From Bacteroidota bacterium (GTDB lineage: Bacteria; Bacteroidota; Bacteroidia; UBA4408), in the NCBI GenBank assembly GCA_037131955.1, contig JBAXQC010000001.1, positions 46,366 through 110,365 of the forward strand: DNA of 64,000 nt, in the 5' to 3' direction. Position 1 is the stretch's first letter, and each line of letters starts with the position of its first letter. A program made the translations under genes and the position numbers. The notes under the pieces are model-generated. The model worked only from the letters and a program-made list of their open reading frames with translations, was not told the origin of the DNA and ran no database searches. Of this stretch, positions 21,512 through 36,054 are shown piece by piece.

Positions 21512-24500
21512 TTAATTGCCGAATACTACCTTTTCATTTTTAACTTCTCCATTGGTAGTAAGTTGAACAACATAGGCTCCACTAAGGTTTTCTAAATTTA
21601 ATTGAGCTTTACTTCCATTGCTGCTGCTCATATTTTTGTATTCTACCAATTGTCCTAGGCTATTATAGATTCTCAGTTCGCTGTTGCCTGTACTTTTTGT
21701 TAAATCTAAAAACAGATTCCTTTGGCTAGAGTAAATAATACCTTGTGTTTCAGTATTTGAAGCACCTAATAACGCTTTTTTACTAAAATGTACAAAAAAC
21801 CTATTTCCGCTGTTGCCTTCAGTTAGGTTCACCTCGTATTTACTGTTGGCCCTCATGTCTTGAAACTTGCCTAGTGAGGCATCTTCTAAGTAAACATTGA
21901 TACTTGGGTCTATTGAGCTTAGTTCATTAAATTCTAGTTCTTTGCTTCCGCTGGTTTTTGAATTAATACTAACGGGAACAACTTTATCATGCTCAAAATC
22001 CTTGAACGTATTTATTGCCAAAGGATAATTATCAGTAGATAAGCTGTAGATTGAACTACTGTATATTGGCTCATTCAATAGCTTTTTTGCATCTGTTTGT
22101 AAATCGTATTCATCGTTACTTTCTCCATCGGTTCTAATTAATAATTCATCTCTTTCTGCACCATCATTTAGTTGTATTCTGCACTCATTTTGAGGTGTTG
22201 CAAAATAAACATACGATTGGTTAGTAGTTCTCATGCTATTGTTCATTAAAATATTTGTTGAACCTGGAACATTAGATATTACAAAAAACCCCTGACTGTG
22301 TGCCAATCTATCATTAGTTCCTGCTCCTATATTGTTTACCCATATTCCAGGGCCTGAGCTGTAAACTGCATAGTTTGTTTTATTCCAAATATAAACAAAA
22401 GGTAAAATCGTAGAACTGTTGGCTGCTACCATAGCATTTAAGCTAATTGGAGAAGGATATGGATTTCCTATTAAATTTAAACCATCATCAGTTCTCGTTA
22501 CAGGAATATTGTATAAGCCTGTATTAGCAGTTCCAACTACATCTATTAACCTGTTTTGCGGTATGGTTGCCATTATACCTAAGCCGGGTGACATTACTTT
22601 GGCAATACCGTTTACCCATCCTGGTGTTACAGCAGCAGTTAGTGTTTCATTAAACCACCAAGTACTAGGAAATTGAGTAGGTTGCGTTACATTAGGGTTG
22701 GTATTGTATACATAACCAACGGGTGATCCGTTTACAACAAAATTATCATTGTAATTTTGATAGACTGTACTGCCATTTGTAACAGGAGAAGCAATAGTAT
22801 GTGATGCAGGCAATGGATTACTTACAAAGCGTTGAACTCGAGTTCCGCCTGAAATACTACCTGAATAACCTCCACTAAAATCGTTGATAAATCCTGCTGT
22901 AGATCCGCTTGAAGTAATTACTAAATTATTGGAATTGGTGGTTAGTACTCCATTTTTTAATGCTAATTCTCTAGAAATACTCAAATTGCCAAGTGGAGCT
23001 ATTGAAACGCCAGAACTGTTGTTAATATCAATATTTACTGCAGAAACAATACCACTTACATTTTGAGGGAAAACTGAATTAAATTCAACAATTCCTGAAC
23101 CTGTAAAATTCCCATTTCCTTCTATATCTCCCTCCACTGTTAACTTTCTTCCTGATGCGATTGTAACTGTTGGGTTAATTGCGCCATTTGGAACAAATTT
23201 AATTTTTCTACAATTTGCATCCACGCTACTTAAGTTGGGCTGCGGGCTTGTTACTGCTCTTATTAGAATATCACGTGCGGAGTTTGGTAAAACTCCACCT
23301 GTCCAATTGCCAGGAGTATTCCAATTATTTGAAACCAAACCTAGCCATTGGTATAAAATAGGAGTATAGTTGTTTTCATAAGCACCAATATCAGTAGCAG
23401 TACCAATTCCTGCATATCCAACTGCTCCAAATCTTGGAACACCTATAGCATCTGTTGTAATACCCAAATTGCTAATTGTTCCACCACTTTCTATTCTTGT
23501 TTCGGTAACAGTATTTATTTTTAAGAAATTAGAATTAGAACCATCAACAGAAAGGAAACTTACATTTTCTGCAAAAGAACTATTTTCAAAACCAACAAAA
23601 TTTCTGTAGGCATTAAAACTTTGATAGTTGTTGGTTCCATCGCTGAAAATAAAGTTATTTGAAATTGTGGAATCAGAAACAAAATAGGCATTATTATTAG
23701 AAGTGTTTAACAATCCACCACTTGCTCCATTTCTTGTAAGTACTCTTACTCCACCGCCACTGGCTGCATTAGATCTGTTGATAAAAATATTGTTTCTCAA
23801 ATCTACAGGAACACTTGAATTAAAAGCAAAAGCACTTGAACCAAATGAACCGCCGCTACTTGAAGCCTGCAAATAAACGGAGTTGTAATAGAATTTAATA
23901 GAGGTGGCAGTAGTTCCATTTATGTTTATTCCTGAAATTGCATCACTTGAATTACTTGAAACTGTTGTAAAATCTCCAATTACAGAGTTAGAAACTACGC
24001 CTAGCAATCCCGCTTGTGTGGAAGTAATATTTATACCCTCCACTTTGCCAGAAACAGTTGCAAATTTTACAATTCTATTATTCTCCAAATTTAGGGAGTC
24101 AACGGTTACAATTCTAATTCCCTCAATTGAATCGGACGCTGAAGAGAAATTTGATAATGTATTTCCGGATATTCTGGCTTTGTTAGGTCCTCCACTTCCA
24201 CTACCAGTATGAAGAATTCCAAAGCAAGCTCCTGTACCAGTTGATGTGGATAAATTGCTTATTGTATTGTTTCTTGTAATTCCAATATTTGGACCACCCG
24301 AACCTGAACCAGTATGCAGTATTCCGTATGCATTACCGCTTCCAGAATTGGTTACATTTGAAATTGTATTGGATACTCTAGAAAAATTATTTGGACCGCC
24401 AGAACCAGAGCCTGTATGCAATATTCCAAAGGCATTTCCATTGGAAGAATTTGAAATATTATTAATTATGTTGCTCGAATTAGCGAAATTATTAGGGCCT

Positions 24501-27500
24501 CCAGAGCCTGAGCCTGTGTGTAAAATACCAAATGCTGAACCTGTTCCGTTACTGCTAACATTTTCAATAGTGTTAGTTGAACAATTTACAATATTCGGTC
24601 CACCTGAACCAGAGCCTGTATGTAAAATACCAAAAGCAGCTCCACCTCCAGTGTTTGTTATATTGGAAATTCCATTTCCAGTAATTGTTCTTGCTTGATT
24701 TAATCCTGGAGTAGTTGCGCTAGATTCGCTGTAAATACCGTAAGCCTCTCCGCCAGAACTATTAATAATAGCATTAATTGTATTTCCTAAATCAGTAAAA
24801 TGATTTGGACCTCCACTGCCACTTCCAGTATGCAATATTCCGTAAGATGAACCTGCTCCAGAATTTGAAATATTTACAATATTGTTGGTTGTAAAATAAT
24901 AGTTATTCGGACCTCCACTTCCACTTCCTGTATGCAGTATTCCATAAGACGAACCTGATCCGCTGCTAGTTATATTGTCTATATCATTTGAAGTGTTGTT
25001 TATATTGTTTGGACCTCCACTTCCACTGCCCGTATGCAAAATCCCATAAGCTGCACCTGCTCCACTGTTATTTATATCATCAATAAAATTATCATTTGTG
25101 GTCATAGAAGTACTTCCATTTCCAGATTCTTCATGAGCTATTGCATACACGTCGCCGGTTGAGGTGGTTTTTGAAATATTAAAAATATCGTTATTTTTTA
25201 TATTTTTAGTGTGTCCTCCACTTGAAGTTGTTGTATGTAAAATTCCATAGGCATTACCCGCGCCAGTTTGGGTAATATTAAAAATAGAATCGTTGTCTAC
25301 ACTTAAAATAACCCCATTAATTGCCTCTAGGGCATAGATAGAAGAATTTGATGTGTAATTATCCAAAGTATTTGTATTTGCAGAAATATCATTACCGTCG
25401 GCTATTGTTATACCCTTAATTGTTCCACCAAAAGCGGTAAAAGTTTTTATTTTATTTTGATTTACAATTTTATCAAAAGTAGTTCTGCCCGTAGTTAAAA
25501 TACCTCTTACATTAGAAACTCCAAAACCTGTTACATTTTTTATATAGTTTTTAACGATTCTTTCTACTCCAGCACCAGCTTGTATTTGAACTCCTCCGTT
25601 ATTACCTTGACTTGCCATTGCTACAAAACCTGCAACTGCATCATTGTAATAGACTGCCAATGTTCCGCCCGATCCAGTTTTTGAAATGTTGGTTATTGTA
25701 TTTTCTGATACAACAACAGAATCTGCACCTGAAGGATTGTAAATTACAAACATATCTGCAGGAGTTGATGAAGTAAAATTACGAACAGTATCTTTTAATA
25801 TATACACCCTTTCTGTTTCTGAAGTATTGTATATTCCATAAACATTGGCAGAGGTATTTATATTAACGTTGTTAACAATTCTGTTGGAATCTATTTGCAG
25901 TTTATAAATTTCTGGTTGAACATTTCTAATGGCAAAAAACTCTCCACTAGAACCTGCAGTTACCAGTGAATTTTGAATTACATTCTTTTTAATTCTTAAA
26001 AATGCAGAAGTTGAATTTAAACCGTTGTTGATAACCATCATTGGTTTATTTGTAATTGCTTGTTTAAGTGATAAAGTGTTTGATGCAATTACTGAATTAC
26101 CGCTCGTGTTTCCAATTACTGAAATACCACTTATATCTCCTTGTGTATTTTGACCGCCATTAGCAGTATTGTCAATTGAATTATTTCCAATCACAAAACT
26201 TGCTACGTTGTTTAATTGAACTCCAATGGTAGGCGTTGTATTTCCACCTAGGTTATTGAGAATATTACCATTTTGGCTTACAGCCGAATCTCCAACAAAA
26301 ATATTTCTTTCTAATAAATTAGATGAAGCAGAAGAAAAACCTCTTAAAATTACGCCCTTATTGACTTTTGTGATGGTATTTCCCCAAATTCTTATTTGAT
26401 CGAAGTTACCTGTTGGAAGTGTTGGTGTATAACTTTGTGTAGGATCAAAAGCATGATTACCCAAATAAATACCTGTAGAAGCGGTGTCAGCATTTTGTAA
26501 AAATATTCTACAATTTCTAATTGTAACATTTTGGCTTGCATCGTTATTTGTTTTTTTGAGAATTGCAATACCCCACTCCATTCTCTCAAAATTGTCGTCG
26601 TTTATTGGAGGATCCACAAAAATAATGTTTTGAATGGTAACGAAACTAGTTCCTACAATTCTTACCACACCATCGCGGTCTATTGTTCCACCTGGTCTTG
26701 CGTTAAAGGTGGGAAGATTGTTTGGATCACCTTGAAAAATTAATGGGTTTGCTGCGGATGGAGGATTGTTTTGCACATCAATTAAAATGTTTCCAAGAGA
26801 ACCAATATATCCTGGAGTAATATTGACTGTAACACCTCCAGCTCCCACTCCATTGGCATTTATGTTGTTTACAATTTCTTCTAGTGTTGAAACATCTGCC
26901 GGAAAATTAATTATTCCTGAAAGTGGAACAGCTGTTATGCTAGCAGCTGTAAAGAAATTGGAACCTGCTATAAAGTTTATATTGGTTGGAGAATTGAGTT
27001 GCAATGTTCCAATTTGCGTTGGTGTAACATAATTATAGTTTCCTCCAACGTTAAAATTGGCAATACCATTTGTATTGAACAATTGAAATAAGCCTTGTAC
27101 TTCGGAATTTCCATTTAATTCTGAAGCATTGTTTAAATAATCTATGGTTGCATTGGCGGTAATTGCAGATGGAGTTATTACTTCATAGACTCTTTTGATA
27201 CTTGATGTTGTTCCAACACCAACAATTGGCAAGGAGTAACGTCTTACTGCAACGTTGCCAATGTTTCCTGTAGTACTTTGTAATTCGATACCTAAATTTG
27301 AACCATCACTTAGGGTTGACGATAAAACATTTTGGGTATAACCAACATAACCTTGCCCATAAACAGGACTAGCTGATGTATTTATTATTTTAGAATCATT
27401 GTCCTCATTTACAATCAAGCCAGAGCCTGAAAGAGTAAGATTAAAATTATTTAAGTCTAAATCACCGTTAGAAGAATTGCTAAATTCAAGGTCATTGGCT

Positions 27501-30500
27501 ACGTTAATGTTAGAAAACAACTTGGCACCACCAGCACCTGCAAGTTTCAAAGCGTAGAAATTTCCTGAACCTAAAAAAGTAATGTTTTGTTCGGCTGCCC
27601 CCGTAAAAGTTATTTTTGATGAATTTGGAGTGAAAGTTGAACCTGCATTTAAAGTATAATTACCACCTAACTTTAGCTCTTGATCACCTGAATTTGATAA
27701 TACTATCGTTCCGTTGCCGGAATTTCCTATTGTTAAATTTCCAACTATCTGTAAAGTAGAAAAAAATTGATTTCCTCCGGTGTTTAAATCAACGGTGCTA
27801 CCTCCTTCTATGGTAAAATTATTGGTAACTTTTATTGGTGTGTTATCATTTACATCAAATGAAGCAAATTGCAATTGAGAATTGGTTCTTACAATTACAT
27901 TTTGAGGGCAACCTGGTCCAGATAAGGCAGACCACTCTGTGCCTCTTGAAATTGAACCATTTCCGGAATAAATTAAATAAGAACTTGCCCCATAAGAAGG
28001 TGCAATTGAACTATTATCAAAGGAAGAGGCATTTTTTAAAACTAAAGAATCACTAATGGTGTAGGCAGAATTTGTAAAAACTGCTGTTGCGTTATCTAAT
28101 GAAACCTTTTTAAATGAAATTGGGGTGGATCCATCAAAAGTAACATTTCCATTTTTAAATTCTAAATACCCTGTTCCAAGAAAACTTAAACTTCCGTTTT
28201 TTATAATGTTTCCAAAGGATGGCGGTAGACCAGTATATAAATTTACATCTACAATTAGTTTTAGATCATTTTGCACTACAAAATTTGATCCAGCTCCAAT
28301 GGTCATTTCACAAACAGAAATATCTACAGGGTGAACAGCGGCAACTCCTGTTCTATTGTATATTAATTTACTAAATTTTGCATTAGTTCCTGAAATTATT
28401 CCATTGGTAGTTCCTTGAATTATAAAATCGTTTCCATTTTGATTGAGAGTTCCATTCAGAGTAACATTACCGTTGTTTACGGTAAAACTCCCGCCAGACG
28501 ATGCTGAAAGATTTAATGTGCCATTAAGAATTAATGACGTAACTTGAGTATTGGCGGTCATATTTGAAGGGCTATTCATGTTTACAGATGCCCCACTTTG
28601 CACAATTAGTGTACCTGCAATGGCGGTGCTGGTAGCTACGCTTACACCATAATTAAGTGTAACACCAGAAGATATAGTAACATTAAAAGGGTAACCATAT
28701 CCTGAGGTTGCACTCCATTCTGCACCACGAGTTAATGTTCCTGAATTATAAAATAAAGTTGTACTGCCAGAATAGGCTGGTCCATTATTAACTACCGATC
28801 CGCCTGTATTTATGCTTAAATTGTTCGTAATGGTTGAAAGACTGTTCCCAAAATCAATTTGGGAAAAAGCTCCCACCCCAGTTAGATTTATTTGAGAAGC
28901 TCCCGATGTTGTAATAGTTAAGCTACCTGGTCCAAATGCATTTAAACTATTTAACGTTCTAGTTCCACTTACCCCTATATTTATGTTTTTGGCTGCTGTA
29001 TTGCCAAATCTAAGGGCTGTTCCTCCACCCATTGTGATATTTCCGTTGGTAAGAGCTAAAATATTTGCAGAAGAACCTCCTATCAATCTTAAATAAGAAG
29101 ATGAAGTACTAGTGCAGGTGACACTTCCTGCTGTTTTATCAATTTCTATAGCATGAATATCTGTAACAGTTGGCCAAGTAAAGGTTTGAACATTGGTGCC
29201 AATAAAAAATACTGTTCTGCTGTTTGATGCAATGTGATTGGTTCCAGTTCCGGTATATGTAAGGTTTCCGGCAATTTTTAAATCTCCTCCTGCCACAGTA
29301 GAAAGAGTAAGAATATCTCCGGCGGAAGCAAATGATAAGTTTCCTATTATTGCTCTATATAACGAACTTGCACCAAAATTAAGTGAGGTGTTATTTGTAA
29401 TATTTACATTAAATGGAACACCCACACCAGAAGTAGCATTGGTTGCCCATTCTGCGCCAGCAACATAGGCACCACCTGGCTGATAATTTAAGGTAGAAGT
29501 ATTGCTATAAATTGGAGGATTTGTATCTACATAGCCTCCTGTTCCTATACTTAAAAACCCATTTACTGTAGAAACATTTGCACCAAAGTTTATTCCACCT
29601 GTTGTAATTATTGAAACATTTGAAGCAAAATTTAACAAGGTAGTACCAGCAGCAACTACTGTTTTTACGCCACCATTTATGGAGAAGCTACCACCAGCAT
29701 TTGTACTATTTATATTTTTGGTAACGTTACCACTAATGTTGATGTTAGACGTTCCATTCATTGTTAGTGTTTGCCCATTCAAATCAAGTTGAATGGTATT
29801 AGTACCACTTAATGTAAGGTCATTATTTATTAGAACATTGGTAGCATCAGGTGCGGTATTATATAACTGAACTGTGCCAATAGTTTTATCAATAATCAAG
29901 TAATCGAACGTAACTGTTCCTGAACCAAATTTTATTATTTGTTGTGTTGCTTGAGTACCTGTAAATGTAACAGCTCTCCCATTTGGAGTAAAAGTAGCAG
30001 TAGAATATTGCCAAAAATTACCTGTTAATTGCAAATCACCACCAACGGCAGAAGATAATATTAGATTACCTTCCATTCTTAATCTACCACATTTTAGGAA
30101 ATTAGTCATTACACTACCTACTTGATTCATGTTAACAGAAGCTCCTGGATAGATATAAAAATCTTTGGCACATGTATGAGAGTTTGCAGGGTCAGCTCCA
30201 CCTAAATTCAATGTACCAGATTTTACAAATACATCATTTTGCGGATAACCTGGTACAGCGGTAATAGCGCTATTCCATTCTGTACCTCTATTATATAAAC
30301 CTCCAGTATTATATGACAATGTTGAAGTAGTTGAATAAATTGGAGGATTTACAGACACAAAGCCACCTGAGTTTATTTCCATTAGTCCGGTTACTGTCGT
30401 ATTTGATCCAAAATTGACACCCGTAGAGAGAAATACATTTCTAAGTGAACTTGTGCCAGAAATCGTATGTGTAGCCGCTCCACTAAAAACTAATTTACTT

Positions 30501-30961
30501 GCCGCAGCACTAGTTGCCCAAGTGCCATTGTTAACAAGTGTTGTGCCACTTGTAGCATTGTTTATGGTAAGGGTTCTTATTGTAGCATCACCTAAAGTAA
30601 ATGTTTTGCCTGGATTTATTGTTAAACTTGATACTGTTGCATCTTGGTTCAACACTACGTTGTGATTGATTACAATATCAGCCCCTGCTGGAGGCACGGT
30701 ACCTCCAACCCAAGTTGCGCCTATATTCCAATCGCCATTGGCAACGGTTGTGTATCCCGATTGTAAGGTATTGCTATTGCCGCCCATCAGCAAACCCACA
30801 CCCGAAGCCGGGAAGTTGCCCACAAGTGGTTCGCCAATAGCAAAACTCAGTAAACTTGTATTGCCGTTGTTGTTACTAAAAGTTTGCATTTGCAAACTTT
30901 GTGCTACAAGCTGTAAACTGAATGTTACTGCTAAAACAAGCATTGTAATTAATTTATTCAT
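21512..30961 (-). CDS. Giant (3149 aa) secreted beta-helix-rich surface protein with probable T9SS C-terminal domain
   Basis: Signal peptide; Asn/Thr/Gly/Ser-rich beta-solenoid repeats; NLIGNPYPS motif; C-terminus IYNSLGQLV...LSGAYVVQL...KVV. Confidence 0.85.
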   Translation of the reverse strand: MNKLITMLVLAVTFSLQLVAQSLQMQTFSNNNGNTSLLSFAIGEPLVGNFPASGVGLLMGGNSNTLQSGYTTVANGDWNIGATWVGGTVPPAGADIVINHNVVLNQDATVSSLTINPGKTFTLGDATIRTLTINNATSGTTLVNNGTWATSAAASKLVFSGAATHTISGTSSLRNVFLSTGVNFGSNTTVTGLMEINSGGFVSVNPPIYSTTSTLSYNTGGLYNRGTEWNSAITAVPGYPQNDVFVKSGTLNLGGADPANSHTCAKDFYIYPGASVNMNQVGSVMTNFLKCGRLRMEGNLILSSAVGGDLQLTGNFWQYSTATFTPNGRAVTFTGTQATQQIIKFGSGTVTFDYLIIDKTIGTVQLYNTAPDATNVLINNDLTLSGTNTIQLDLNGQTLTMNGTSNINISGNVTKNINSTNAGGSFSINGGVKTVVAAGTTLLNFASNVSIITTGGINFGANVSTVNGFLSIGTGGYVDTNPPIYSNTSTLNYQPGGAYVAGAEWATNATSGVGVPFNVNITNNTSLNFGASSLYRAIIGNLSFASAGDILTLSTVAGGDLKIAGNLTYTGTGTNHIASNSRTVFFIGTNVQTFTWPTVTDIHAIEIDKTAGSVTCTSTSSSYLRLIGGSSANILALTNGNITMGGGTALRFGNTAAKNINIGVSGTRTLNSLNAFGPGSLTITTSGASQINLTGVGAFSQIDFGNSLSTITNNLSINTGGSVVNNGPAYSGSTTLFYNSGTLTRGAEWSATSGYGYPFNVTISSGVTLNYGVSVATSTAIAGTLIVQSGASVNMNSPSNMTANTQVTSLILNGTLNLSASSGGSFTVNNGNVTLNGTLNQNGNDFIIQGTTNGIISGTNAKFSKLIYNRTGVAAVHPVDISVCEMTIGAGSNFVVQNDLKLIVDVNLYTGLPPSFGNIIKNGSLSFLGTGYLEFKNGNVTFDGSTPISFKKVSLDNATAVFTNSAYTISDSLVLKNASSFDNSSIAPSYGASSYLIYSGNGSISRGTEWSALSGPGCPQNVIVRTNSQLQFASFDVNDNTPIKVTNNFTIEGGSTVDLNTGGNQFFSTLQIVGNLTIGNSGNGTIVLSNSGDQELKLGGNYTLNAGSTFTPNSSKITFTGAAEQNITFLGSGNFYALKLAGAGGAKLFSNINVANDLEFSNSSNGDLDLNNFNLTLSGSGLIVNEDNDSKIINTSASPVYGQGYVGYTQNVLSSTLSDGSNLGIELQSTTGNIGNVAVRRYSLPIVGVGTTSSIKRVYEVITPSAITANATIDYLNNASELNGNSEVQGLFQLFNTNGIANFNVGGNYNYVTPTQIGTLQLNSPTNINFIAGSNFFTAASITAVPLSGIINFPADVSTLEEIVNNINANGVGAGGVTVNITPGYIGSLGNILIDVQNNPPSAANPLIFQGDPNNLPTFNARPGGTIDRDGVVRIVGTSFVTIQNIIFVDPPINDDNFERMEWGIAILKKTNNDASQNVTIRNCRIFLQNADTASTGIYLGNHAFDPTQSYTPTLPTGNFDQIRIWGNTITKVNKGVILRGFSSASSNLLERNIFVGDSAVSQNGNILNNLGGNTTPTIGVQLNNVASFVIGNNSIDNTANGGQNTQGDISGISVIGNTSGNSVIASNTLSLKQAITNKPMMVINNGLNSTSAFLRIKKNVIQNSLVTAGSSGEFFAIRNVQPEIYKLQIDSNRIVNNVNINTSANVYGIYNTSETERVYILKDTVRNFTSSTPADMFVIYNPSGADSVVVSENTITNISKTGSGGTLAVYYNDAVAGFVAMASQGNNGGVQIQAGAGVERIVKNYIKNVTGFGVSNVRGILTTGRTTFDKIVNQNKIKTFTAFGGTIKGITIADGNDISANTNTLDNYTSNSSIYALEAINGVILSVDNDSIFNITQTGAGNAYGILHTTTSSGGHTKNIKNNDIFNISKTTSTGDVYAIAHEESGNGSTSMTTNDNFIDDINNSGAGAAYGILHTGSGSGGPNNINNTSNDIDNITSSGSGSSYGILHTGSGSGGPNNYYFTTNNIVNISNSGAGSSYGILHTGSGSGGPNHFTDLGNTINAIINSSGGEAYGIYSESSATTPGLNQARTITGNGISNITNTGGGAAFGILHTGSGSGGPNIVNCSTNTIENVSSNGTGSAFGILHTGSGSGGPNNFANSSNIINNISNSSNGNAFGILHTGSGSGGPNNFSRVSNTISNVTNSGSGNAYGILHTGSGSGGPNIGITRNNTISNLSTSTGTGACFGILHTGSGSGGPNKARISGNTLSNFSSASDSIEGIRIVTVDSLNLENNRIVKFATVSGKVEGINITSTQAGLLGVVSNSVIGDFTTVSSNSSDAISGININGTTATSIKFYYNSVYLQASSSGGSFGSSAFAFNSSVPVDLRNNIFINRSNAASGGGVRVLTRNGASGGLLNTSNNNAYFVSDSTISNNFIFSDGTNNYQSFNAYRNFVGFENSSFAENVSFLSVDGSNSNFLKINTVTETRIESGGTISNLGITTDAIGVPRFGAVGYAGIGTATDIGAYENNYTPILYQWLGLVSNNWNTPGNWTGGVLPNSARDILIRAVTSPQPNLSSVDANCRKIKFVPNGAINPTVTIASGRKLTVEGDIEGNGNFTGSGIVEFNSVFPQNVSGIVSAVNIDINNSSGVSIAPLGNLSISRELALKNGVLTTNSNNLVITSSGSTAGFINDFSGGYSGSISGGTRVQRFVSNPLPASHTIASPVTNGSTVYQNYNDNFVVNGSPVGYVYNTNPNVTQPTQFPSTWWFNETLTAAVTPGWVNGIAKVMSPGLGIMATIPQNRLIDVVGTANTGLYNIPVTRTDDGLNLIGNPYPSPISLNAMVAANSSTILPFVYIWNKTNYAVYSSGPGIWVNNIGAGTNDRLAHSQGFFVISNVPGSTNILMNNSMRTTNQSYVYFATPQNECRIQLNDGAERDELLIRTDGESNDEYDLQTDAKKLLNEPIYSSSIYSLSTDNYPLAINTFKDFEHDKVVPVSINSKTSGSKELEFNELSSIDPSINVYLEDASLGKFQDMRANSKYEVNLTEGNSGNRFFVHFSKKALLGASNTETQGIIYSSQRNLFLDLTKSTGNSELRIYNSLGQLVEYKNMSSSNGSKAQLNLENLSGAYVVQLTTNGEVKNEKVVFGN
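24182..25045 (-). repeat. Intragenic 34-aa period repeat with eight invariant GILHTGSGSGGPN motifs
   Basis: Counted in the translation; about 102-nt spacing; one degenerate unit in the middle. Confidence 0.95.
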
Positions 30962-30984: not shown

Positions 30985-31108
30985 TTTTCTATTCTCTTTT
31001 TATTGATAGTATTCTCTTACTATTATTATTCTTGAACCTAATCTGTTTTGTCAATCTAAGATTGACTTTTAGCAGTCCGTAGTCTGGAGACTACGGACAA
31101 CTGGGTTA
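30985..31108. repeat. Double-hairpin intergenic repeat, copy A1
   Basis: GTCAATC-taa-GATTGAC (31050-31066) plus GTCCGTAGTCT-gg-AGACTACGGAC (31075-31098); about 120 nt similar to 32921-33044. Confidence 0.93.
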
Positions 31109-31264
31109 CTTTTTGTTTTGTTTACTTAAATACTTACGCTCTTCTTCATAGGTTAAGTTCATTATTTCTAAACTAATTTTATCTCTAATTTTTCTCATTG
31201 TTTTAATAGCGTCAAAACCATCTACTATTTGAATTGCTTTTTTCTTTTTGCGTGTAGTTACCAT
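31106..31264 (-). CDS. 52-aa basic protein, putative antitoxin/partner of the PIN protein (absent from the ORF track)
   Basis: Translated by hand: MVTTRKKKKAIQIVDGFDAIKTMRKIRDKISLEIMNLTYEEERKYLSKQNKK; starts 1 nt after the PIN stop. Confidence 0.75.
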   Translation of the reverse strand: MVTTRKKKKAIQIVDGFDAIKTMRKIRDKISLEIMNLTYEEERKYLSKQNKK

Positions 31265-31265
31265 T

Positions 31266-31715
31266 TTATACAATTTCTTTGGGTGTTCTTATTTCTATTG
31301 TTGGAAATCCTAATCTCATATTTACTGAATTGTAACCTCTTATTCTATCAAGGTTAACAATATGTTTAAAATTCCAGCTTACTAAAACTTCGGCATTTGA
31401 TAGCGTTGCCATAGCTATATGCTGACAATCGGCCCTACTTGTTTTACCAACAACTTTAGCTTTTATATATTCATCTGCCAATTCAGTAGCTTGTTTAGAT
31501 AATTGAATATTTATAATTTGTTTTTGAGGCAATTTTTTGAAAAAGTCCTTTACAAAAATAGGGGCAAGTTCTAATTCTTTGACCAGCAAATCAGAAACTA
31601 TTAATGTTGTTTTACCTGCATTTACATTTTCAAAAAGCGGCATCGTAGATTCGGCAAATTCCTTATCGAAATAACCTCCTACTACCGATGTGTCTATGTA
31701 AACTTTTTTAATCAT
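31266..31715 (-). CDS. PIN-domain (VapC-like) nuclease
   Basis: VYIDTSV, E, D-x-x-HIA and VSWNFKHIVN motifs. Confidence 0.88.
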   Translation of the reverse strand: MIKKVYIDTSVVGGYFDKEFAESTMPLFENVNAGKTTLIVSDLLVKELELAPIFVKDFFKKLPQKQIINIQLSKQATELADEYIKAKVVGKTSRADCQHIAMATLSNAEVLVSWNFKHIVNLDRIRGYNSVNMRLGFPTIEIRTPKEIV

Positions 31716-31734
31716 TTTTATTTTTAAGTCATTT

Positions 31735-31797
31735 TTGTTTTGTCAATTAAAAATTGACTTTTAGCAGTCCGTAGTCAGAGACTGCGGACAACTGGGA
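31735..31797. repeat. Double-hairpin intergenic repeat, copy A2
   Basis: GTCAATT-aaa-AATTGAC (31742-31758) plus GTCCGTAGTC-aga-GACTGCGGAC (31767-31789). Confidence 0.9.
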
Positions 31798-31813
31798 GTT
31801 AGTGGATACCAGA

Positions 31814-32233
31814 TTATTTCATTTTTAGTTGCGCAAAATTTGGGTGTTCGGGATTCACAATCAACTCTTGACGCAAAGGATGAATCAATACATCCATTTC
31901 TTCCATCGGAATTGCACCTAACAATGGCTCACTGTCGCCAGGCAAAACAAGGGCATTACAAGCTGTATCCCTGTTTTTAAACCTAACTTCAATTGGACCC
32001 ACAACATCATACTCAACTACAGAACTATCAGCCATTTGTGCTTTACGCTTACCAGTTGGTGTAAGGTTTAGCTGTTGGCAAATAGTTTCATTAATAGCCA
32101 TCATATAAGCGCCACTATCCACTAACATGTTTATACGAATGCTATTAACTTCATCATCGCCAATTAAATGACGCTTTGCCATTACCTTTTCGGCTGCATT
32201 TATTAATTCTATATCTGCGTAAACTAGTCCCAT
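31814..32233 (-). CDS. Clan AA (retropepsin-like) aspartic protease
   Basis: LVDSGA catalytic motif and PLLGAIPMEEMD. Confidence 0.85.
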   Translation of the reverse strand: MGLVYADIELINAAEKVMAKRHLIGDDEVNSIRINMLVDSGAYMMAINETICQQLNLTPTGKRKAQMADSSVVEYDVVGPIEVRFKNRDTACNALVLPGDSEPLLGAIPMEEMDVLIHPLRQELIVNPEHPNFAQLKMK

Positions 32234-32326
32234 GTTTCTTAATTTTTATTTTCTATTTTTACTATTCTGTTACTATTATTCTTTAACCTTTTGTTTCTTT
32301 GCTAAAGCAAGGTTTTTGCCTTGTGG

Positions 32327-32422
32327 TTTTTATTTTGGTACTTACCATTTTTATTTCTATTTGTACTTAGTCCCTTTGCTCCGCCGAGGCGGATTCCCTT
32401 GCTTCAGACTAAGGACAGATTG
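32327..32422. repeat. Hairpin repeat, copy B1 (expanded loop)
   Basis: Arms GTACTTAGTC (32363-72) and GACTAAGGAC (32407-16) enclosing TCCGCC-ga-GGCGGA; shared with 34207-34278. Confidence 0.85.
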
Positions 32423-32431
32423 TTTGTAAAT

Positions 32432-32638
32432 TTAGACTGCCTTTGAATAATTAATTGGAAACAAAGCCTCCAAATTAATATGCTTGGAAGCATCCATTAT
32501 TTCTATTCCAACTATTTTGTCATTTTCACCCATATCGAGTACAATATCGTCGGTAACACGCTTGTTTGTTACCGTTTGTTGCTGTTGCTCTAATCTTAAA
32601 TAAAGCATATCGGTGTTTGAGTCGTAGTGTATTGTCAT
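32432..32638 (-). CDS. DUF2283-like small protein (putative antitoxin)
   Basis: IHYDSNTDMLYLRL...IVLD...IVGIEIMDAS. Confidence 0.85.
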   Translation of the reverse strand: MTIHYDSNTDMLYLRLEQQQQTVTNKRVTDDIVLDMGENDKIVGIEIMDASKHINLEALFPINYSKAV

Positions 32639-32659
32639 TGTTTTAATTATTAAATTTAT

Positions 32660-32920
32660 TTATTCAAATATTCCGTAAAAAACATAAACTGTTACTGTTA
32701 TTATTTTATCATTTTCTATGATGTAAAAAACATCAATTCTTTTTTGTTCATAGTATTTATTGTTTCTTAATTGTTGAAACAAAAATGCCTTTGATTTTGC
32801 TAATCTTCCTTGTTTTGCATCTACCTCTATACCATTTGTAAGCACATCAATAATTTCGCTTTCATCTGCACCACGCTCAACAGCACGCTGCAATGTATGT
32901 GGCTCTATTATTATTTGCAT
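32660..32920 (-). CDS. DUF4258-like small protein (RelE-like putative toxin)
   Basis: HTLQRAVERG...EI.DVL..G and IITVTVY; paired with the DUF2283-like gene. Confidence 0.75.
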   Translation of the reverse strand: MQIIIEPHTLQRAVERGADESEIIDVLTNGIEVDAKQGRLAKSKAFLFQQLRNNKYYEQKRIDVFYIIENDKIITVTVYVFYGIFE

Positions 32921-33044
32921 TTCTATTTTCTCTTTTTACTGCTAATATTCTGTTACTATTATTATTTCTGAACCTAATCTGTTTGTCAATCAGAGATTGA
33001 CTTTTAGCAGTCCGTAGTCTGGAGACTACGGACAACTTGGGTTA
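32921..33044. repeat. Double-hairpin intergenic repeat, copy A3
   Basis: GTCAATC-aga-GATTGAC (32985-33001) plus GTCCGTAGTCT-gg-AGACTACGGAC (33010-33033). Confidence 0.93.
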
Positions 33045-33050
33045 ATTCAA

Positions 33051-34031
33051 TCAATGTTTAATAATATAATTTACATAAACATTTTTTGGGCGGGTTTCGT
33101 TACCACCCGCATTTGTAGTTGTACCAAATTGAGGTGTATTCAAATTGCCTTGGGGAGGAAAAGCAAAAGCACCAGTAGAAGTTGTTGTGGCATATTGGAC
33201 GTGTTGATGGGTATGACTTTTAAGTTCATCTACTTGCAAACTACCAACATTATTACCTGTATTACCGCCACTATTACTTGATGTTCGTGTAGCTTTATCA
33301 GGGTCGTTATTGGCAGTGCCATCTACACCTCTAACAAAACGGCCTCTTAAATCAGGCAGATGAAAAGTTGTGCTACCATCACCAGCCCCATAGGCGGTGC
33401 CAATTACGGCAAAAAGAGCTGCATAAGTTGTTCTGGAAACTTGAGATCCATCGCACAATAACCAACCTGTTGGAGCAGTTGTTCCGGTAAAAGCTATTAA
33501 ACCACCAGCAGGGCCCCCATTGTCATCCGTACCTGCCACCCAAGTAGTTCCGTTGTGTTTTAGTACTTGGCCGTTTGCACCAGTAGTTTTTAACTCTTCG
33601 GCTGTTCTTGCAGAAAAGGCATAAAAAGAAGCAGAAGCTTGTGAATTGCTAATTAGCGTAAAAGCATCTACTAAGTTTGGCCTAAACTCTACTCTCAGCC
33701 ATTTGTCTCCGGTGCTCCAATTTATATTGTTAAATGTGGTTGGCCCGCTAGAAGAACTTGCATCTCCTTCGCTAAGGCTTAATGTAAATTGTCCGTATGC
33801 ATCGGTTGTTTTTTGGAAGGTTAATGCCCTAAGTGTTGCACCTCCGTTGCCTTGCGTAATGGTAATACGGGCTTCTATGGTGGTGTTTGCCACTATTTGG
33901 TTGCTGGCATTACGTGCCACTGCCTGAAAGTTTACTGCACTGGGAATGTTTTGTGCCTGACAATTGATAGTTGACAATTGATAATTGATAACTAACAATA
34001 GTGCGATGATTTTGTAGAAGTGCTTTTTCAT
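33051..34031 (-). CDS. Secreted protein with C-terminal phage tail-collar/fibre domain
   Basis: Signal peptide; NFQAVARN N-domain; APTGWLLCDG...DGSTTFHLPDLRGRF collar motif; GGNETRPKN...YIIK end. Confidence 0.85.
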   Translation of the reverse strand: MKKHFYKIIALLLVINYQLSTINCQAQNIPSAVNFQAVARNASNQIVANTTIEARITITQGNGGATLRALTFQKTTDAYGQFTLSLSEGDASSSSGPTTFNNINWSTGDKWLRVEFRPNLVDAFTLISNSQASASFYAFSARTAEELKTTGANGQVLKHNGTTWVAGTDDNGGPAGGLIAFTGTTAPTGWLLCDGSQVSRTTYAALFAVIGTAYGAGDGSTTFHLPDLRGRFVRGVDGTANNDPDKATRTSSNSGGNTGNNVGSLQVDELKSHTHQHVQYATTTSTGAFAFPPQGNLNTPQFGTTTNAGGNETRPKNVYVNYIIKH

Positions 34032-34087
34032 TTTTTAGCTTAGTTTTTATTGTTTACTTTTTAAATTATTTCGTTTTTCTTTTAATC

Positions 34088-34278
34088 CTTAGTTCCCTTT
34101 GCTCCGCCGCGGCGGATTCCTTTGCTTCTCTGCTACCGCAAGGCTCTTGCCTTGTGGTTTTCCTTTACTTCATGCTGCCACAAGCGGGACGCTTGCGGTA
34201 GCGGGGTACTTACCTTTTTTATTTCTATTTGTCCTTAGTCCCTTTGCTTTGCCTTTGCTTCAGACTAAGGACAGATTG
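34088..34278. repeat. Cluster of REP-like palindromes including hairpin copy B2 and a REPIN-like doublet
   Basis: TCCGCC-gc-GGCGGA; inverted GCTACCGCAAG (34132-42) / CTTGCGGTAGC (34192-202); arms GTCCTTAGTC (34231-40) / GACTAAGGAC (34263-72). Confidence 0.85.
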
Positions 34279-34309
34279 GTGTTAATCCCATTTTATTTTT
34301 AATTTCTTT

Positions 34310-35455
34310 TTATTGATAATATTCTTTGACTATTATGACACCAGAACCACCTACACCTGTTGAACTAGAACCGCCAGCACCAATTGAATAGGTATATGTT
34401 GCATTTGGTGAAGTTATAAGTGCTTTAATATAGCCTCCGGCGCCACCTCCACCTCCTGGGCCTGAAGCTGATTTACCACCTCCACCACTACCAGAGTTTG
34501 CAATTCCATTTTTTTGAGCCGATTCTGGGTCAGCTGTAGTTCCGCCTCCGCCTGCACCACCAAAAGGAGTGGCTCCTCCATTGCCTGAATGGTCACTTGT
34601 AGAGTTTCTTGAACCTGCTCCTCCAGCGCTACCTGTAATTGCAACCAAGGTAATTGCTGGTGCATTTACTGTTGTTGTTCCACCTACTCCACCAGTACGA
34701 CCATTTATATTAGCAGCAGCACCTGCACCGCCGTTTGCAGTTAATAAACTTGTTCCAAAAGTAGTAGAACTGCCAGAACCTCCAGCAAATGAGGCTGTTG
34801 AACCTCCTCCACCTCCACCAACTAACTCAACTTCTATATATAACACTCCAGCAGACCTTGCATAAGTTCCGCTACCTGAAGTAAAACGTTGCACTGTTGG
34901 CGCAATAAAAGTAGAGCCAGCATCCGTCCCCGCCACCCAAGTAGTTCCGTTGTGTTTTAGCACTTGGCCGTTTGTGCCTGTTATATTAACCTTTTCAGCG
35001 GTTTTTGCACCAAAGGCATAAAAACTTGCGGTGGCTTGTGTGTTGCTAATGAGTGTGTAATTATTATCTGCCAATGGGCTAAGGCTTACCTTTATAAATT
35101 TGGCACTGCTTGCCCAATCAATGGCTGCAAAGTTAGCTACTGTACCAGCGGTAACTACTGGCGAGCCTGCACCTATGGCAAAGTTAAATTGTCCGTAAGC
35201 ATCGGTAGTGGGTGTGTAAACCAAGGTAACCATAACAGGGCCACTGCTGCTGCCATCAAGCACTTCTATTTTTACCTGCACATTGGAATTGGTAATAAGC
35301 GAGCCTACTGCATTGCGTGCAATGGCTTGGAAGTTAACAGCGTTGGGGATGGTTTGAGCAACAGCCCCACCCCAACCCTCCCCTAAAGGGAGGGAGAAAA
35401 CACCTAAATTATAAATTAGAATTGCTGCAATAATTTTGTTGAGTTTACTTTTCAT
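34310..35455 (-). CDS. Secreted paralogue of 33051..34031 with Gly-rich C-terminal domain
   Basis: Same NFQAIARN N-domain and GQVLKHNGTTWVAGTD hinge; VELVGGGGGG...GGSGVIIVKEY Gly-rich fibre-type domain. Confidence 0.85.
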   Translation of the reverse strand: MKSKLNKIIAAILIYNLGVFSLPLGEGWGGAVAQTIPNAVNFQAIARNAVGSLITNSNVQVKIEVLDGSSSGPVMVTLVYTPTTDAYGQFNFAIGAGSPVVTAGTVANFAAIDWASSAKFIKVSLSPLADNNYTLISNTQATASFYAFGAKTAEKVNITGTNGQVLKHNGTTWVAGTDAGSTFIAPTVQRFTSGSGTYARSAGVLYIEVELVGGGGGGSTASFAGGSGSSTTFGTSLLTANGGAGAAANINGRTGGVGGTTTVNAPAITLVAITGSAGGAGSRNSTSDHSGNGGATPFGGAGGGGTTADPESAQKNGIANSGSGGGGKSASGPGGGGGAGGYIKALITSPNATYTYSIGAGGSSSTGVGGSGVIIVKEYYQ

Positions 35456-35620
35456 GCTATTGTTTATTTGTTTACTAGAATATTTTGTTATTTGAATTTA
35501 TTTTTTTGTTCGTTTATACTGATTGCAAATTGTAATGTTTAAAGCTAATTTAATTGTATGATGCTATTCATGTTTGCTTTGATTTAAAATTTATTACCAA
35601 ATTTATTATTTATTTTAATT

Positions 35621-35726
35621 TGCACTGTTATTATTCTGTTAATTTTATTATACTTGAGTCTAATCAGTTTGTCAATCTGAGATTGACTTGTGGCAGTTCG
35701 TAGTCAGAGACTACGAACAACTTAGG
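35621..35726. repeat. Double-hairpin intergenic repeat, copy A4
   Basis: GTCAATC-tga-GATTGAC (35671-35687) plus GTTCGTAGTC-aga-GACTACGAAC (35696-35718). Confidence 0.9.
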
Positions 35727-36054
35727 CAAAGCTTGTTCCATCGTAATTAAAACCTACGTTGGTTCCATCTGCATCAATACCTCCATTTACAGGTATTTGA
35801 GGATCTTTATCGAGGTAAAATACTAAAGCGTTTGATGGGTTAGAACCAGATAAAGCTATATATAAATTATTTGCATCCCAAGTTAGATAAGTAATACCGC
35901 CGCCACTTGATTGCTGGTTTTGCCCGTCGGTATGCACACCGTATTCGTTGGCAGCTATGATACCATTAATACTTGGAGTATTAAACTGGGCAAATGCAAC
36001 TTGCACCATAACAGAAAACGTAATTGCAATAAATAGTTTGAAATTTGTTTTCAT
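35722..36054 (-). pseudogene. N-terminal fragment of a secreted protein, apparently truncated at repeat A4
   Basis: Signal peptide plus start of a beta-rich domain (YLTWDANNLYIA, FYLDKDP); the TAA stop lies within the repeat edge. Confidence 0.6.

Follow-up and report, generated by a model that had tools for sequence, protein, structure and literature searches.

The locus described here, at positions 30,985 to 36,054 of a 64,000-nucleotide stretch of a Bacteroidota genome (the window; contig JBAXQC010000001.1), raises a question about arrays of small genes in which each unit is followed by a hairpin, namely whether such hairpins are the sites of a dedicated cassette system or members of an ordinary repeat family at which the array recombines. 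A first-pass annotation of the sequence had argued for the former. The arrangement that it described is indeed there: six units, judged from translations of the open reading frames (ORFs) and from Pfam, all lie in the same orientation on the minus strand, and six hairpins are found at 31075-31098, 31767-31789, 33010-33033 and 35696-35718 (the first hairpins of what we call junction module A, copies 1 to 4) and at 32363-32416 and 34231-34272 (two long-loop variants). The hairpins sit only between units, never inside either of the two-gene pairs, and neither the rest of the window nor the rest of its 134.6-kb contig has a further copy. Their arms pair perfectly in four of the six, with one mismatch each in 31767-31789 and 32363-32416; across the 2.97-Mb genome the arm pattern has eight forward and seven reverse matches, while the same pattern written backwards, as a control, has none. 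The answer that we hold with moderate confidence is that the hairpins are copies of a small family of repetitive extragenic palindromic (REP) repeats, of the intergenic kind associated with the REP-associated tyrosine transposases of Bacteroidota (RAYT, or TnpA-REP; subclass 2.6-like), and that they punctuate an island that was acquired horizontally and recombines at its repeats. A dedicated hairpin-based mobilization of cassettes is possible.

Below, G000 denotes this genome, G001 a congener and G012 a metagenome-assembled genome (MAG) from another genus. Four of the six hairpins belong to a longer junction module of 85-120 nt, which occupies four spacers (nhmmer E-values from 4e-20 to 6e-33) and has no other copy in G000 at E < 0.1. 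In coding-strand order the module consists of CC(C)AGTT, a 10-bp hairpin with a loop of 3-4 nt (hairpin 1), (C/T)TGCTAAAAG, the palindrome GTCAAT-N5-ATTGAC (hairpin 2), AAAC and an A-rich leader of about 55 nt that finishes at or near the next ATG; the segment between hairpin 1 and the palindrome is GCTAAAAG. The other two hairpins lie, among other small hairpins, in composite repeat clusters (spacers 32234-32431 and 34032-34309). They have the same outer arms, GTCCTTAGTC...GACTAAGGAC, but a long loop and no such module around them; the six hairpins do not form one simple family. The long-loop type also occurs elsewhere in G000, near contig starts (C48:8-51, C64:263-304 and C64:329-372).

The two hairpins of the module are conserved in different ways. 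We aligned 16 copies of the core (four from the window, six from the G012 contig C88 and six from metagenome contigs), and in hairpin 1 both sides change in 6 of the 10 pairs (22 cells), a covariation score that none of 500 shuffles reached; pairing holds in 87% of cells, compared with 22-39% in slid controls. Some of the stems are wholly different, e.g. CATCGAAGTT/AACTTCGATG, within the same conserved frame of flanking sequence. At the foot of hairpin 1 there is an NGTT tag, distinct from GT[AG]G, in which the G and the first T do not vary and the second T is kept in at least 90% of the copies. In hairpin 2, 95.8% of cells are paired, but no pair changes on both sides, two of the six pairs never vary and the central 5 nt differ between neighboring copies; it is a conserved sequence and does not covary. 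Folded as single-stranded DNA (ssDNA), the four module copies have z-scores of -4.5 to -5.7. No Rfam family matched anywhere in the window at gathering scores. The module also resembles a promoter, since, of the sigma-70-like matches over 5.7 kb of scanned sequence, the three best (12, 11 and 11 of 12) are provided by module copies, with TTGACA supplied by the 3' arm of hairpin 2 and (T/A)ATAAT lying 17-18 nt further on. We also considered hairpin 1 as an intrinsic terminator, and dropped this because a terminator scan gave no T-run after it.

That the units are of foreign, horizontal origin and have been re-ordered we regard as settled. The G012 contig C88 carries six modules, spaced 500-1040 nt apart, and its units are the same aspartyl protease, a 51-aa plus PIN pair, the same DUF4258 + DUF2283 pair, a DUF433 + DUF5615 pair followed by a DUF2442 gene, a second aspartyl protease and the same PIN gene. 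The DUF4258 + DUF2283 unit, including its upstream module, is 94.1% identical in nucleotide sequence between the two genera over 598 nt, the aspartyl protease unit 90.3% over 554 nt, and the 5' part of the PIN gene 90.2% over 215 nt, up to the end of the G012 contig. In contrast, the remaining sequence of this contig is 72.8-77.2% identical to other G000 contigs and the DNA flanking the window array is 68-74% identical to G012. Identities of 90-94% for the units versus 68-77% elsewhere imply that the units are much younger than the split between these genomes. Both the order of the units and the locus differ in G012, and the cassette-like exchange proposed earlier is therefore supported insofar as three units recur in another genus, in another order and place, although the hairpin is not specific to cassettes, having 36 dispersed matches in G012. 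The island would have been acquired by horizontal transfer from a lineage rich in this repeat, as a mosaic of about 5 kb. Its cargo consists of two pairs of toxin-antitoxin-like genes, one small aspartyl protease and two secreted proteins of the tail-collar type that are paralogues of each other.

Comparison of the interval between selD and the giant gene with the congener reveals where the island went. In G001, selD is followed by one intact giant ORF (at least 1813 aa; contig C103 overlaps C332 there), no array or module is present, and the flanks are 92-94% identical to the window. In the window, a 110-aa ORF matches residues 12-121 of this giant ORF over its full length (53% identity, E 9e-41) and takes its stop codon from the first bases of module copy 4, the left junction being the first base of the module. 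On the other side, the giant gene of the window corresponds from its residue 59 to the G001 ORF from about residue 1799 (residues 128-721 on G001:C332 versus residues 59-650 in the window, 78.8%), with a nucleotide match from window position 30722 downward. Relative to G001, some 1,680 codons (about 5 kb) have been replaced by the array together with a new 58-codon 5' end that carries a signal peptide, and the right junction of the island lies inside an ORF and not at a module. That the adhesin gene was split by the island is settled. It was suggested earlier that the system diversifies a secreted-adhesin operon; this is not supported. The array instead interrupts a single giant adhesin gene and replaces part of it.

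Data from four sequencing runs, all at contig level, bear on whether the array is real. Run X2, from an independent study, tiles the whole stretch in the same order, and we therefore reject the possibility that the array is an assembly chimera. X2 contigs break at 31073-31088 and 33008-33023; since these are sites of identical module copies, we read the breaks as induced by repeats during assembly. No joints were reported in any of the four runs, and neither an excision nor a circle junction was seen, which says nothing about excision because contigs drop rare variants. In the RNA library X11, which derives from the possible source sample, contigs cover 30784-30937, 31105-31415, 31699-31890 and 31865-32219; the third of these crosses the module that separates the protease from the PIN gene and is compatible with read-through, DNA carry-over, which was not excluded, aside. 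Loose ends at 31710 and 34311 (run X6) and at 33085 (X2) suggest other contexts, but they come from single low-depth contigs with 30 nt visible and were not used.

More can be learned from places where related arrays differ. Four metagenome contigs are related to a second G012 locus, on contig C29, at the 3' end of an ABC-F gene. L028 and L030 are 98.9% identical over 937 nt, after which L028 joins sequence that lies 2.6 kb further on in L030; this 2.6-kb indel lies between two modules and leaves exactly one hybrid module, in which the switch between the parental types falls within TACGCC, a stretch of 6 nt located at the 3' foot of hairpin 1. L027, L029 and L030 carry differing units between the ABC-F end and the same module, and in L029 duplicates of the ABC-F 3' end stand between three units. 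Furthermore, there are five junctions at which CC(C)AGTT, or TAAGTT in the case of the window, forms the start of the module beside unrelated left partners (...TTTGCC, ...AAAAAGAAA, ...GTCAATTT, ...GCTAAATG and ...GAAGTTTC), three of which are truncated module copies. The discrete starting points of its copies show that the repeat itself is inserted as a separate piece. No fixed target or cleavage tetranucleotide was found at these five left junctions.

The 3' end of the ABC-F (EttA-like) gene is a hot spot in its own right, seen at L029:1-1330, at 4780-6900 of L058 (G012:C29) and at L030:3100-5340. Its toxin-antitoxin-like units (DUF4258/DUF2283, antitoxin/RelE-like, DUF4160/DUF2442 and DUF433/DUF5615) are split by duplicated copies, 70-105 nt long, of the gene's 3' end, one of which is fused without a gap to a module (AAAAAGAAA|CCCCAGTT). 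The layout suggests serial site-specific integration at the end of a gene.

We built a covariance model of the 66-nt core of the module (R1) and ran it over the 27 genomes of the order. It gave four matches in G000, all in the array, none in the congener G001, 36 on more than 20 contigs of G012, and one or two marginal matches in each of three other genomes. The G012 copies that we inspected lie between ordinary genes (e.g. for an AraC regulator and a DUF983 protein), some of them as inverted pairs, and in many the second palindrome has been swapped for another small palindrome. Given this dispersal, the repeat behaves as a REP family, and the hairpin is not a cassette-specific recombination site. 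The first-pass annotation had itself named a genome-wide scatter of the hairpin after ordinary genes as an argument against a capture system; such a scatter is what is seen in G012, and yet one indel breakpoint does map to the hairpin foot. The stricter pattern GCTAAAAGTCAAT-N5-ATTGACAAA was found, among species-representative genomes, only in G012:C88, and also in four metagenome contigs. A relaxed version had two matches in viral contigs, which we took as chance since both lie inside ORFs and lack hairpin 1.

The suggestion that a RAYT or another HUH enzyme might act on these hairpins turns out to have substance. RAYT genes are present in G000, G012 and a further genome, G014, and in the latter the only two R1 matches flank a RAYT-like gene within about 75 nt, with AGCGTAGTT-N4-AACTACGCT on both sides (L068, i.e. 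G014:C1, 741350-742025). The frame of this gene shifts once before its YIHQNP motif, so that it could be a pseudogene or contain a sequencing error. In G000 itself, contig C92 encodes a RAYT of 182 aa with NHIH, WQ and YIHQNP, matching the signature tabulated for subclass 2.6 of TnpA-Y1, a subclass described as mostly from Bacteroidetes, "flanked by atypical secondary structures" and without GT[AG]G (Quentin et al. 2018, PMC6006769). The repeats flanking the C92 gene are built like the module, with CCAGTT, a stem of 10 bp whose apex is AGTC/GACT, a spacer rich in A and another small palindrome, and R1 matches them at E-values of 7e-4 to 3e-3 in 8.5 kb of chosen sequence, in the hairpin-1 half only; this similarity is a lead rather than proof. 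No RAYT flanked by the array's own stem sequence was found in G000. Within the array, the hairpin at 34177-34206, in one of the composite clusters, has exactly the sequence of the REP flanking a RAYT gene on G012:C43 (100% matches, 30 nt; G012:C43:2319-2348 and 1667-1692).

As for the surroundings of the RAYT genes, the end of the contig that holds the window (C1:134365-134630, outside the window) carries a cluster of CTTTAAGTC-N4-GACTTAAAG repeats and overlaps the start of C92 (C92:1-900), and for this reason the 182-aa RAYT gene is probably located immediately beyond the end of the contig, at a distance of about 52 kb from the array. Counting CTTTAAGTC..GACTTAAAG, there are at least three further low-copy REP-like families in G000, the others being AGTCCTCGTT..AACGAGGACT and CCGCAAGCG..CGCTTGTGG. 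They are mostly at contig ends (C51, C66, C74, C91, C122 and C150), which means that repeat counts from MAGs are lower bounds.

Among known systems the integron is the most obvious one to compare, and the earlier view that this is not an integron is confirmed. There are no attC R''/R' core-site pairs (RYYYAAC/GTTRRRY) on either strand of the six spacers and 30 nt of flank, no IntI reaches the 265-bit cut-off of TIGR02249 in G000, G001 or G012 (the best match, on G000 C16, covers profile positions 2-178 and 231-315 only, at 199.6 bits for the whole protein), and contig C1 has no PF00589 recombinase, the four matches of G000 being on C7, C16, C27 and C89. Taken together, these results tell us that the array is not an integron. 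It does share with integrons, and with the integrase-less clusters of attC sites (CALINs), small co-oriented units separated by a structured repeat, toxin-antitoxin cargo, a variable order and, as in CALINs, the lack of an adjacent integrase. However, its hairpin, a 10-bp stem with near-perfect pairing, has none of the bulged R/L-box architecture of attC, and its repeat also occurs singly after ordinary genes. Closer to home, the rAID-1 clusters (Ross et al., bioRxiv 10.1101/471110) are described from the same phylum as arrays of small accessory genes with repetitive intergenic sequences, a likeness to integrons and signs of horizontal acquisition. As far as that description goes, they are headed by a conserved XerD-family recombinase and carry immunity genes, whereas our array has no adjacent recombinase and carries toxin-antitoxin-like pairs, a protease and secreted proteins; the two are set apart here by description and not by motif.

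The resemblance to REPs, to their clusters (BIMEs) and to REPtrons, specifically those of RAYT group 5, subclass 2.6, as they are characterized in PMC6006769, consists in the following: a short hairpin within the range of about 20-65 nt of REPs, a conserved short sequence at its 5' foot, no GT[AG]G, and an intergenic position, single or clustered, in a repeat that is multi-copy in G012 and flanks the RAYT-like gene of G014. The differences are that the array hairpin is part of a two-hairpin core of 66 nt, in arrays extended to a 120-nt module with a promoter-like motif and a leader, that all four G000 copies are in one 5-kb island, and that the copies bound exchangeable gene units, which is not reported for REPs in the available part of PMC6006769.

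In the reading that we favor, units would be gained, lost and re-ordered by recombination between the repeated modules of 60-120 nt, probably driven mainly by homology and perhaps assisted by hairpin extrusion or by RAYT nicking, and each module may provide its unit with an insulating hairpin, a promoter and a leader. Recombination between repeats is favored because the repeat is not cassette-specific, the right edge of the island is not at a repeat, and no enzyme has been linked to the array. Several points nevertheless weigh against one part or another of this reading. The switch between L028 and L030 took place in a 6-nt block of identity lying beside an identical block of 18 nt, i.e. not where a plain RecA-type exchange would be most expected, and this hints at a site-specific cut. 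The discrete starts of the module show that the repeat is mobile, which is not the same as mobility of the units between repeats. With regard to RAYT enzymes, the G014 gene is frameshifted, those of G000 have repeats with different stems on their flanks, in which R1 recognizes the hairpin-1 half only, and no enzyme is tied to this particular array. The shared units are known from just two genomes and four metagenome contigs, and one of the two, G012, is a MAG with 7% contamination, its array contig being otherwise 73-77% identical to G000. Lastly, the housekeeping promoters of Bacteroidota have the form TTTG / TAnnTTTG, and so the TTGACA/TATAAT match may not function in this host.

Two features, the position of the single mapped switch at the hairpin foot and the discrete starting points of the modules, leave an enzyme-driven single-strand route a minor but real chance. 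The version that we consider unlikely is a dedicated system in which units are excised and inserted as ssDNA by a Y1 HUH enzyme (a RAYT or an IS200/IS605-like TnpA) acting in trans, similar to palindrome-associated transposable elements (PATEs) and analogous to an integron. As in IS200/IS605 ends, the hairpins are co-oriented on one strand, and they have the conserved GTT at their foot, where REPs carry a guide tetranucleotide (PMC6006769). Both IS200/IS605 ends and PATEs have such co-oriented subterminal hairpins with a conserved foot sequence that could guide cleavage. The presence of RAYT genes in all three of G000, G012 and G014, and units that are far more alike between genera than core DNA, would fit as well. 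On the other hand, our units lack tnpA and tnpB, are chained head to tail and show no defined target tetranucleotide at the five junctions; in G012 copies of this repeat are scattered behind ordinary genes, no G000 RAYT is flanked by the hairpin sequence of the array, the right boundary of the island is within an ORF and not at a hairpin, and a single indel has been mapped. A low but real probability may be given to the related proposal that the module is the working site of a gene-capture platform derived from a REPtron, where hairpin 1 would be cut at its foot by a RAYT-type HUH enzyme supplied in trans, and hairpin-bounded units would move as ssDNA and be chained head to tail behind a portable promoter.

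One may also consider that the modules are nothing but expression punctuation, a terminator or mRNA-stabilizing hairpin plus promoter and leader that were copied along with their genes, with the differences in order due to independent indels that have nothing to do with the repeats. The best promoter-like matches do lie within modules, the leader does extend to start codons, dispersed copies on G012 C25 are found 18-40 nt after the ends of co-oriented genes in three of four cases, REPs are reported to stabilize mRNA and to terminate transcription (PMC6006769), and there is the RNA-library contig that runs through a module, with the reservation about DNA carry-over made above. Nevertheless, the blocks that G012 has in common with the window stop within or beside modules, precisely one hybrid module is left behind by the L028/L030 indel, and hairpin 1 has no T-run terminator in the scan, so that we find this explanation improbable. 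Still further down is a tyrosine recombinase acting in trans on GTCAAT-N5-ATTGAC as a dif- or lox-like core, comparable to Bacteroidales rAID-1 or Xer-dependent modules. The palindrome is invariant in sequence while its outer flanks differ, as in the core site of a recombinase, rAID-1 clusters are described as pairing a XerD-family recombinase with repetitive intergenic sequences (bioRxiv 10.1101/471110), and G000 encodes a 359-aa Xer/integron-like recombinase on C16 (NF040815, 221 bits). We set this candidate aside, as it is next to a transposase-like ORF, has no hairpins nearby and has an orthologue in the array-less G001. No tyrosine recombinase is encoded on the 134.6-kb contig, the central 5 nt of the palindrome vary between neighboring copies, the sole mapped switch is at hairpin 1 and not at the palindrome, and the latter is replaced by other small palindromes in many G012 copies; thus, this last explanation is very improbable.

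REPs and RAYT enzymes are widespread, and their function is still debated. Together with toxin-antitoxin islands and integron-like arrays of Bacteroidales (rAID-1, bioRxiv 10.1101/471110), they are already known. Searching the literature at abstract level, we found no described REP-bounded or integron-like toxin-antitoxin array of this layout in Flavobacteria/Bacteroidota, no defined two-hairpin consensus for Bacteroidota RAYT-associated repeats, no use of such repeats as unit boundaries in a transferable, re-ordered island, and none dividing a giant adhesin gene; what came up instead were integron reviews, the rAID-1 preprint and REP/RAYT surveys. Where the accessible part of PMC6006769 describes the Bacteroidota RAYT subclass merely as having "atypical secondary structures", the present locus supplies a concrete two-hairpin consensus, with covariation and with copies that flank a RAYT-like gene. 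The same repeat delimits accessory-gene units that pass from genus to genus and change their order, and the island splits a giant adhesin gene while giving its distal part a new signal peptide. Should the exchange be driven by an enzyme, cassette arrays would have a second route of formation that does not involve integrons, and if the module is the site of a REPtron-derived platform, Bacteroidota would possess an analogue of the integron built on a different class of enzyme. If only homologous recombination is at work, the locus nonetheless shows clearly how small repeats can structure a toxin-antitoxin island.

The individual parts, all on the minus strand, can be followed from the selD side. 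The 110-aa ORF, the 5' stub of the giant gene (35722-36054), is followed by module copy 4 (35612-35723; palindrome 35671-35687; TTGACA-17-TATAAT from 35675 to 35647), with nhmmer E 2e-29, an R1 score of 76.3 bits, an ssDNA fold of -14.4 kcal/mol (z -4.66) and a promoter-like match of 12/12. After it come a 381-aa Gly-rich secreted protein (34310-35455), which has no Pfam match and shares 44% identity with the tail-collar protein over its N-terminal 178 aa, the composite repeat spacer 34032-34309 with its long-loop hairpin (type B) and other REP-like hairpins, and the 326-aa secreted protein with a Phage Tail Collar domain (33051-34031; PF07484, E 1.2e-25). Module copy 3 (32923-33040; palindrome 32985-33001; TTGACA-17-AATAAT from 32989 to 32961; E 5.7e-33; 83.7 bits; -16.0 kcal/mol, z -5.3) precedes the toxin-antitoxin-like DUF4258 + DUF2283 pair (32432-32920; assigned by Pfam, DUF4258 at 24.1 bits being just below the 25-bit cut-off). 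The second composite spacer (32234-32431), with the other type B hairpin, small hairpins and an A-rich leader at its end, folds weakly (z -1.96) and leads to the 139-aa retropepsin-like aspartyl protease (31814-32233; PF13975/PF13650). Module copy 2 (31713-31796; palindrome 31742-31758; E 4e-20; 81.2 bits) has a short leader, a variant that is likewise found upstream of the same PIN gene in G012:C88, and is followed by the PIN-domain protein (149 aa; a weak PIN_3 match of 22.7 bits versus a cut-off of 27) and its 52/55-aa partner (31106-31715). Module copy 1 (30988-31105; palindrome 31050-31066; TTGACA-18-AATAAT from 31054 to 31025; E 6e-32; 82.1 bits; -15.8 kcal/mol, z -5.71) stands directly before the giant gene of 3149 aa, of which the new 58-codon 5' end with the signal peptide (30788-30961) has no counterpart in G001 and the rest (21512-30787), secreted and adhesin-like, is the orthologue of the distal portion of that genome's one giant ORF.

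Some minor features of these genes may be added. The Gly-rich gene contains, in its signal-peptide region, a palindromic stretch of about 33 nt (35363-35395) that encodes PLGEGWGG in frame. This stretch is common to unrelated contigs in the sequencing runs, loose ends cluster near it and a similar one is present in an ORF of G012:C43, so it may be a small repeat that inserts in frame into ORFs. A 32-nt AT-rich stretch just upstream of the start of the tail-collar gene (34041-34072) is also found within an unrelated 5-kb contig in three runs. The PIN gene has paralogues in G000 on C152, a contig of 1919 nt (57% aa identity), and at C18:18008-18448 (56%), and a paralogue of its small partner is on C152 too (49%). 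Finally, the giant protein (21512-30961) carries many repeats of the G(I/L)LHTGSGSGGPN type in its middle part.

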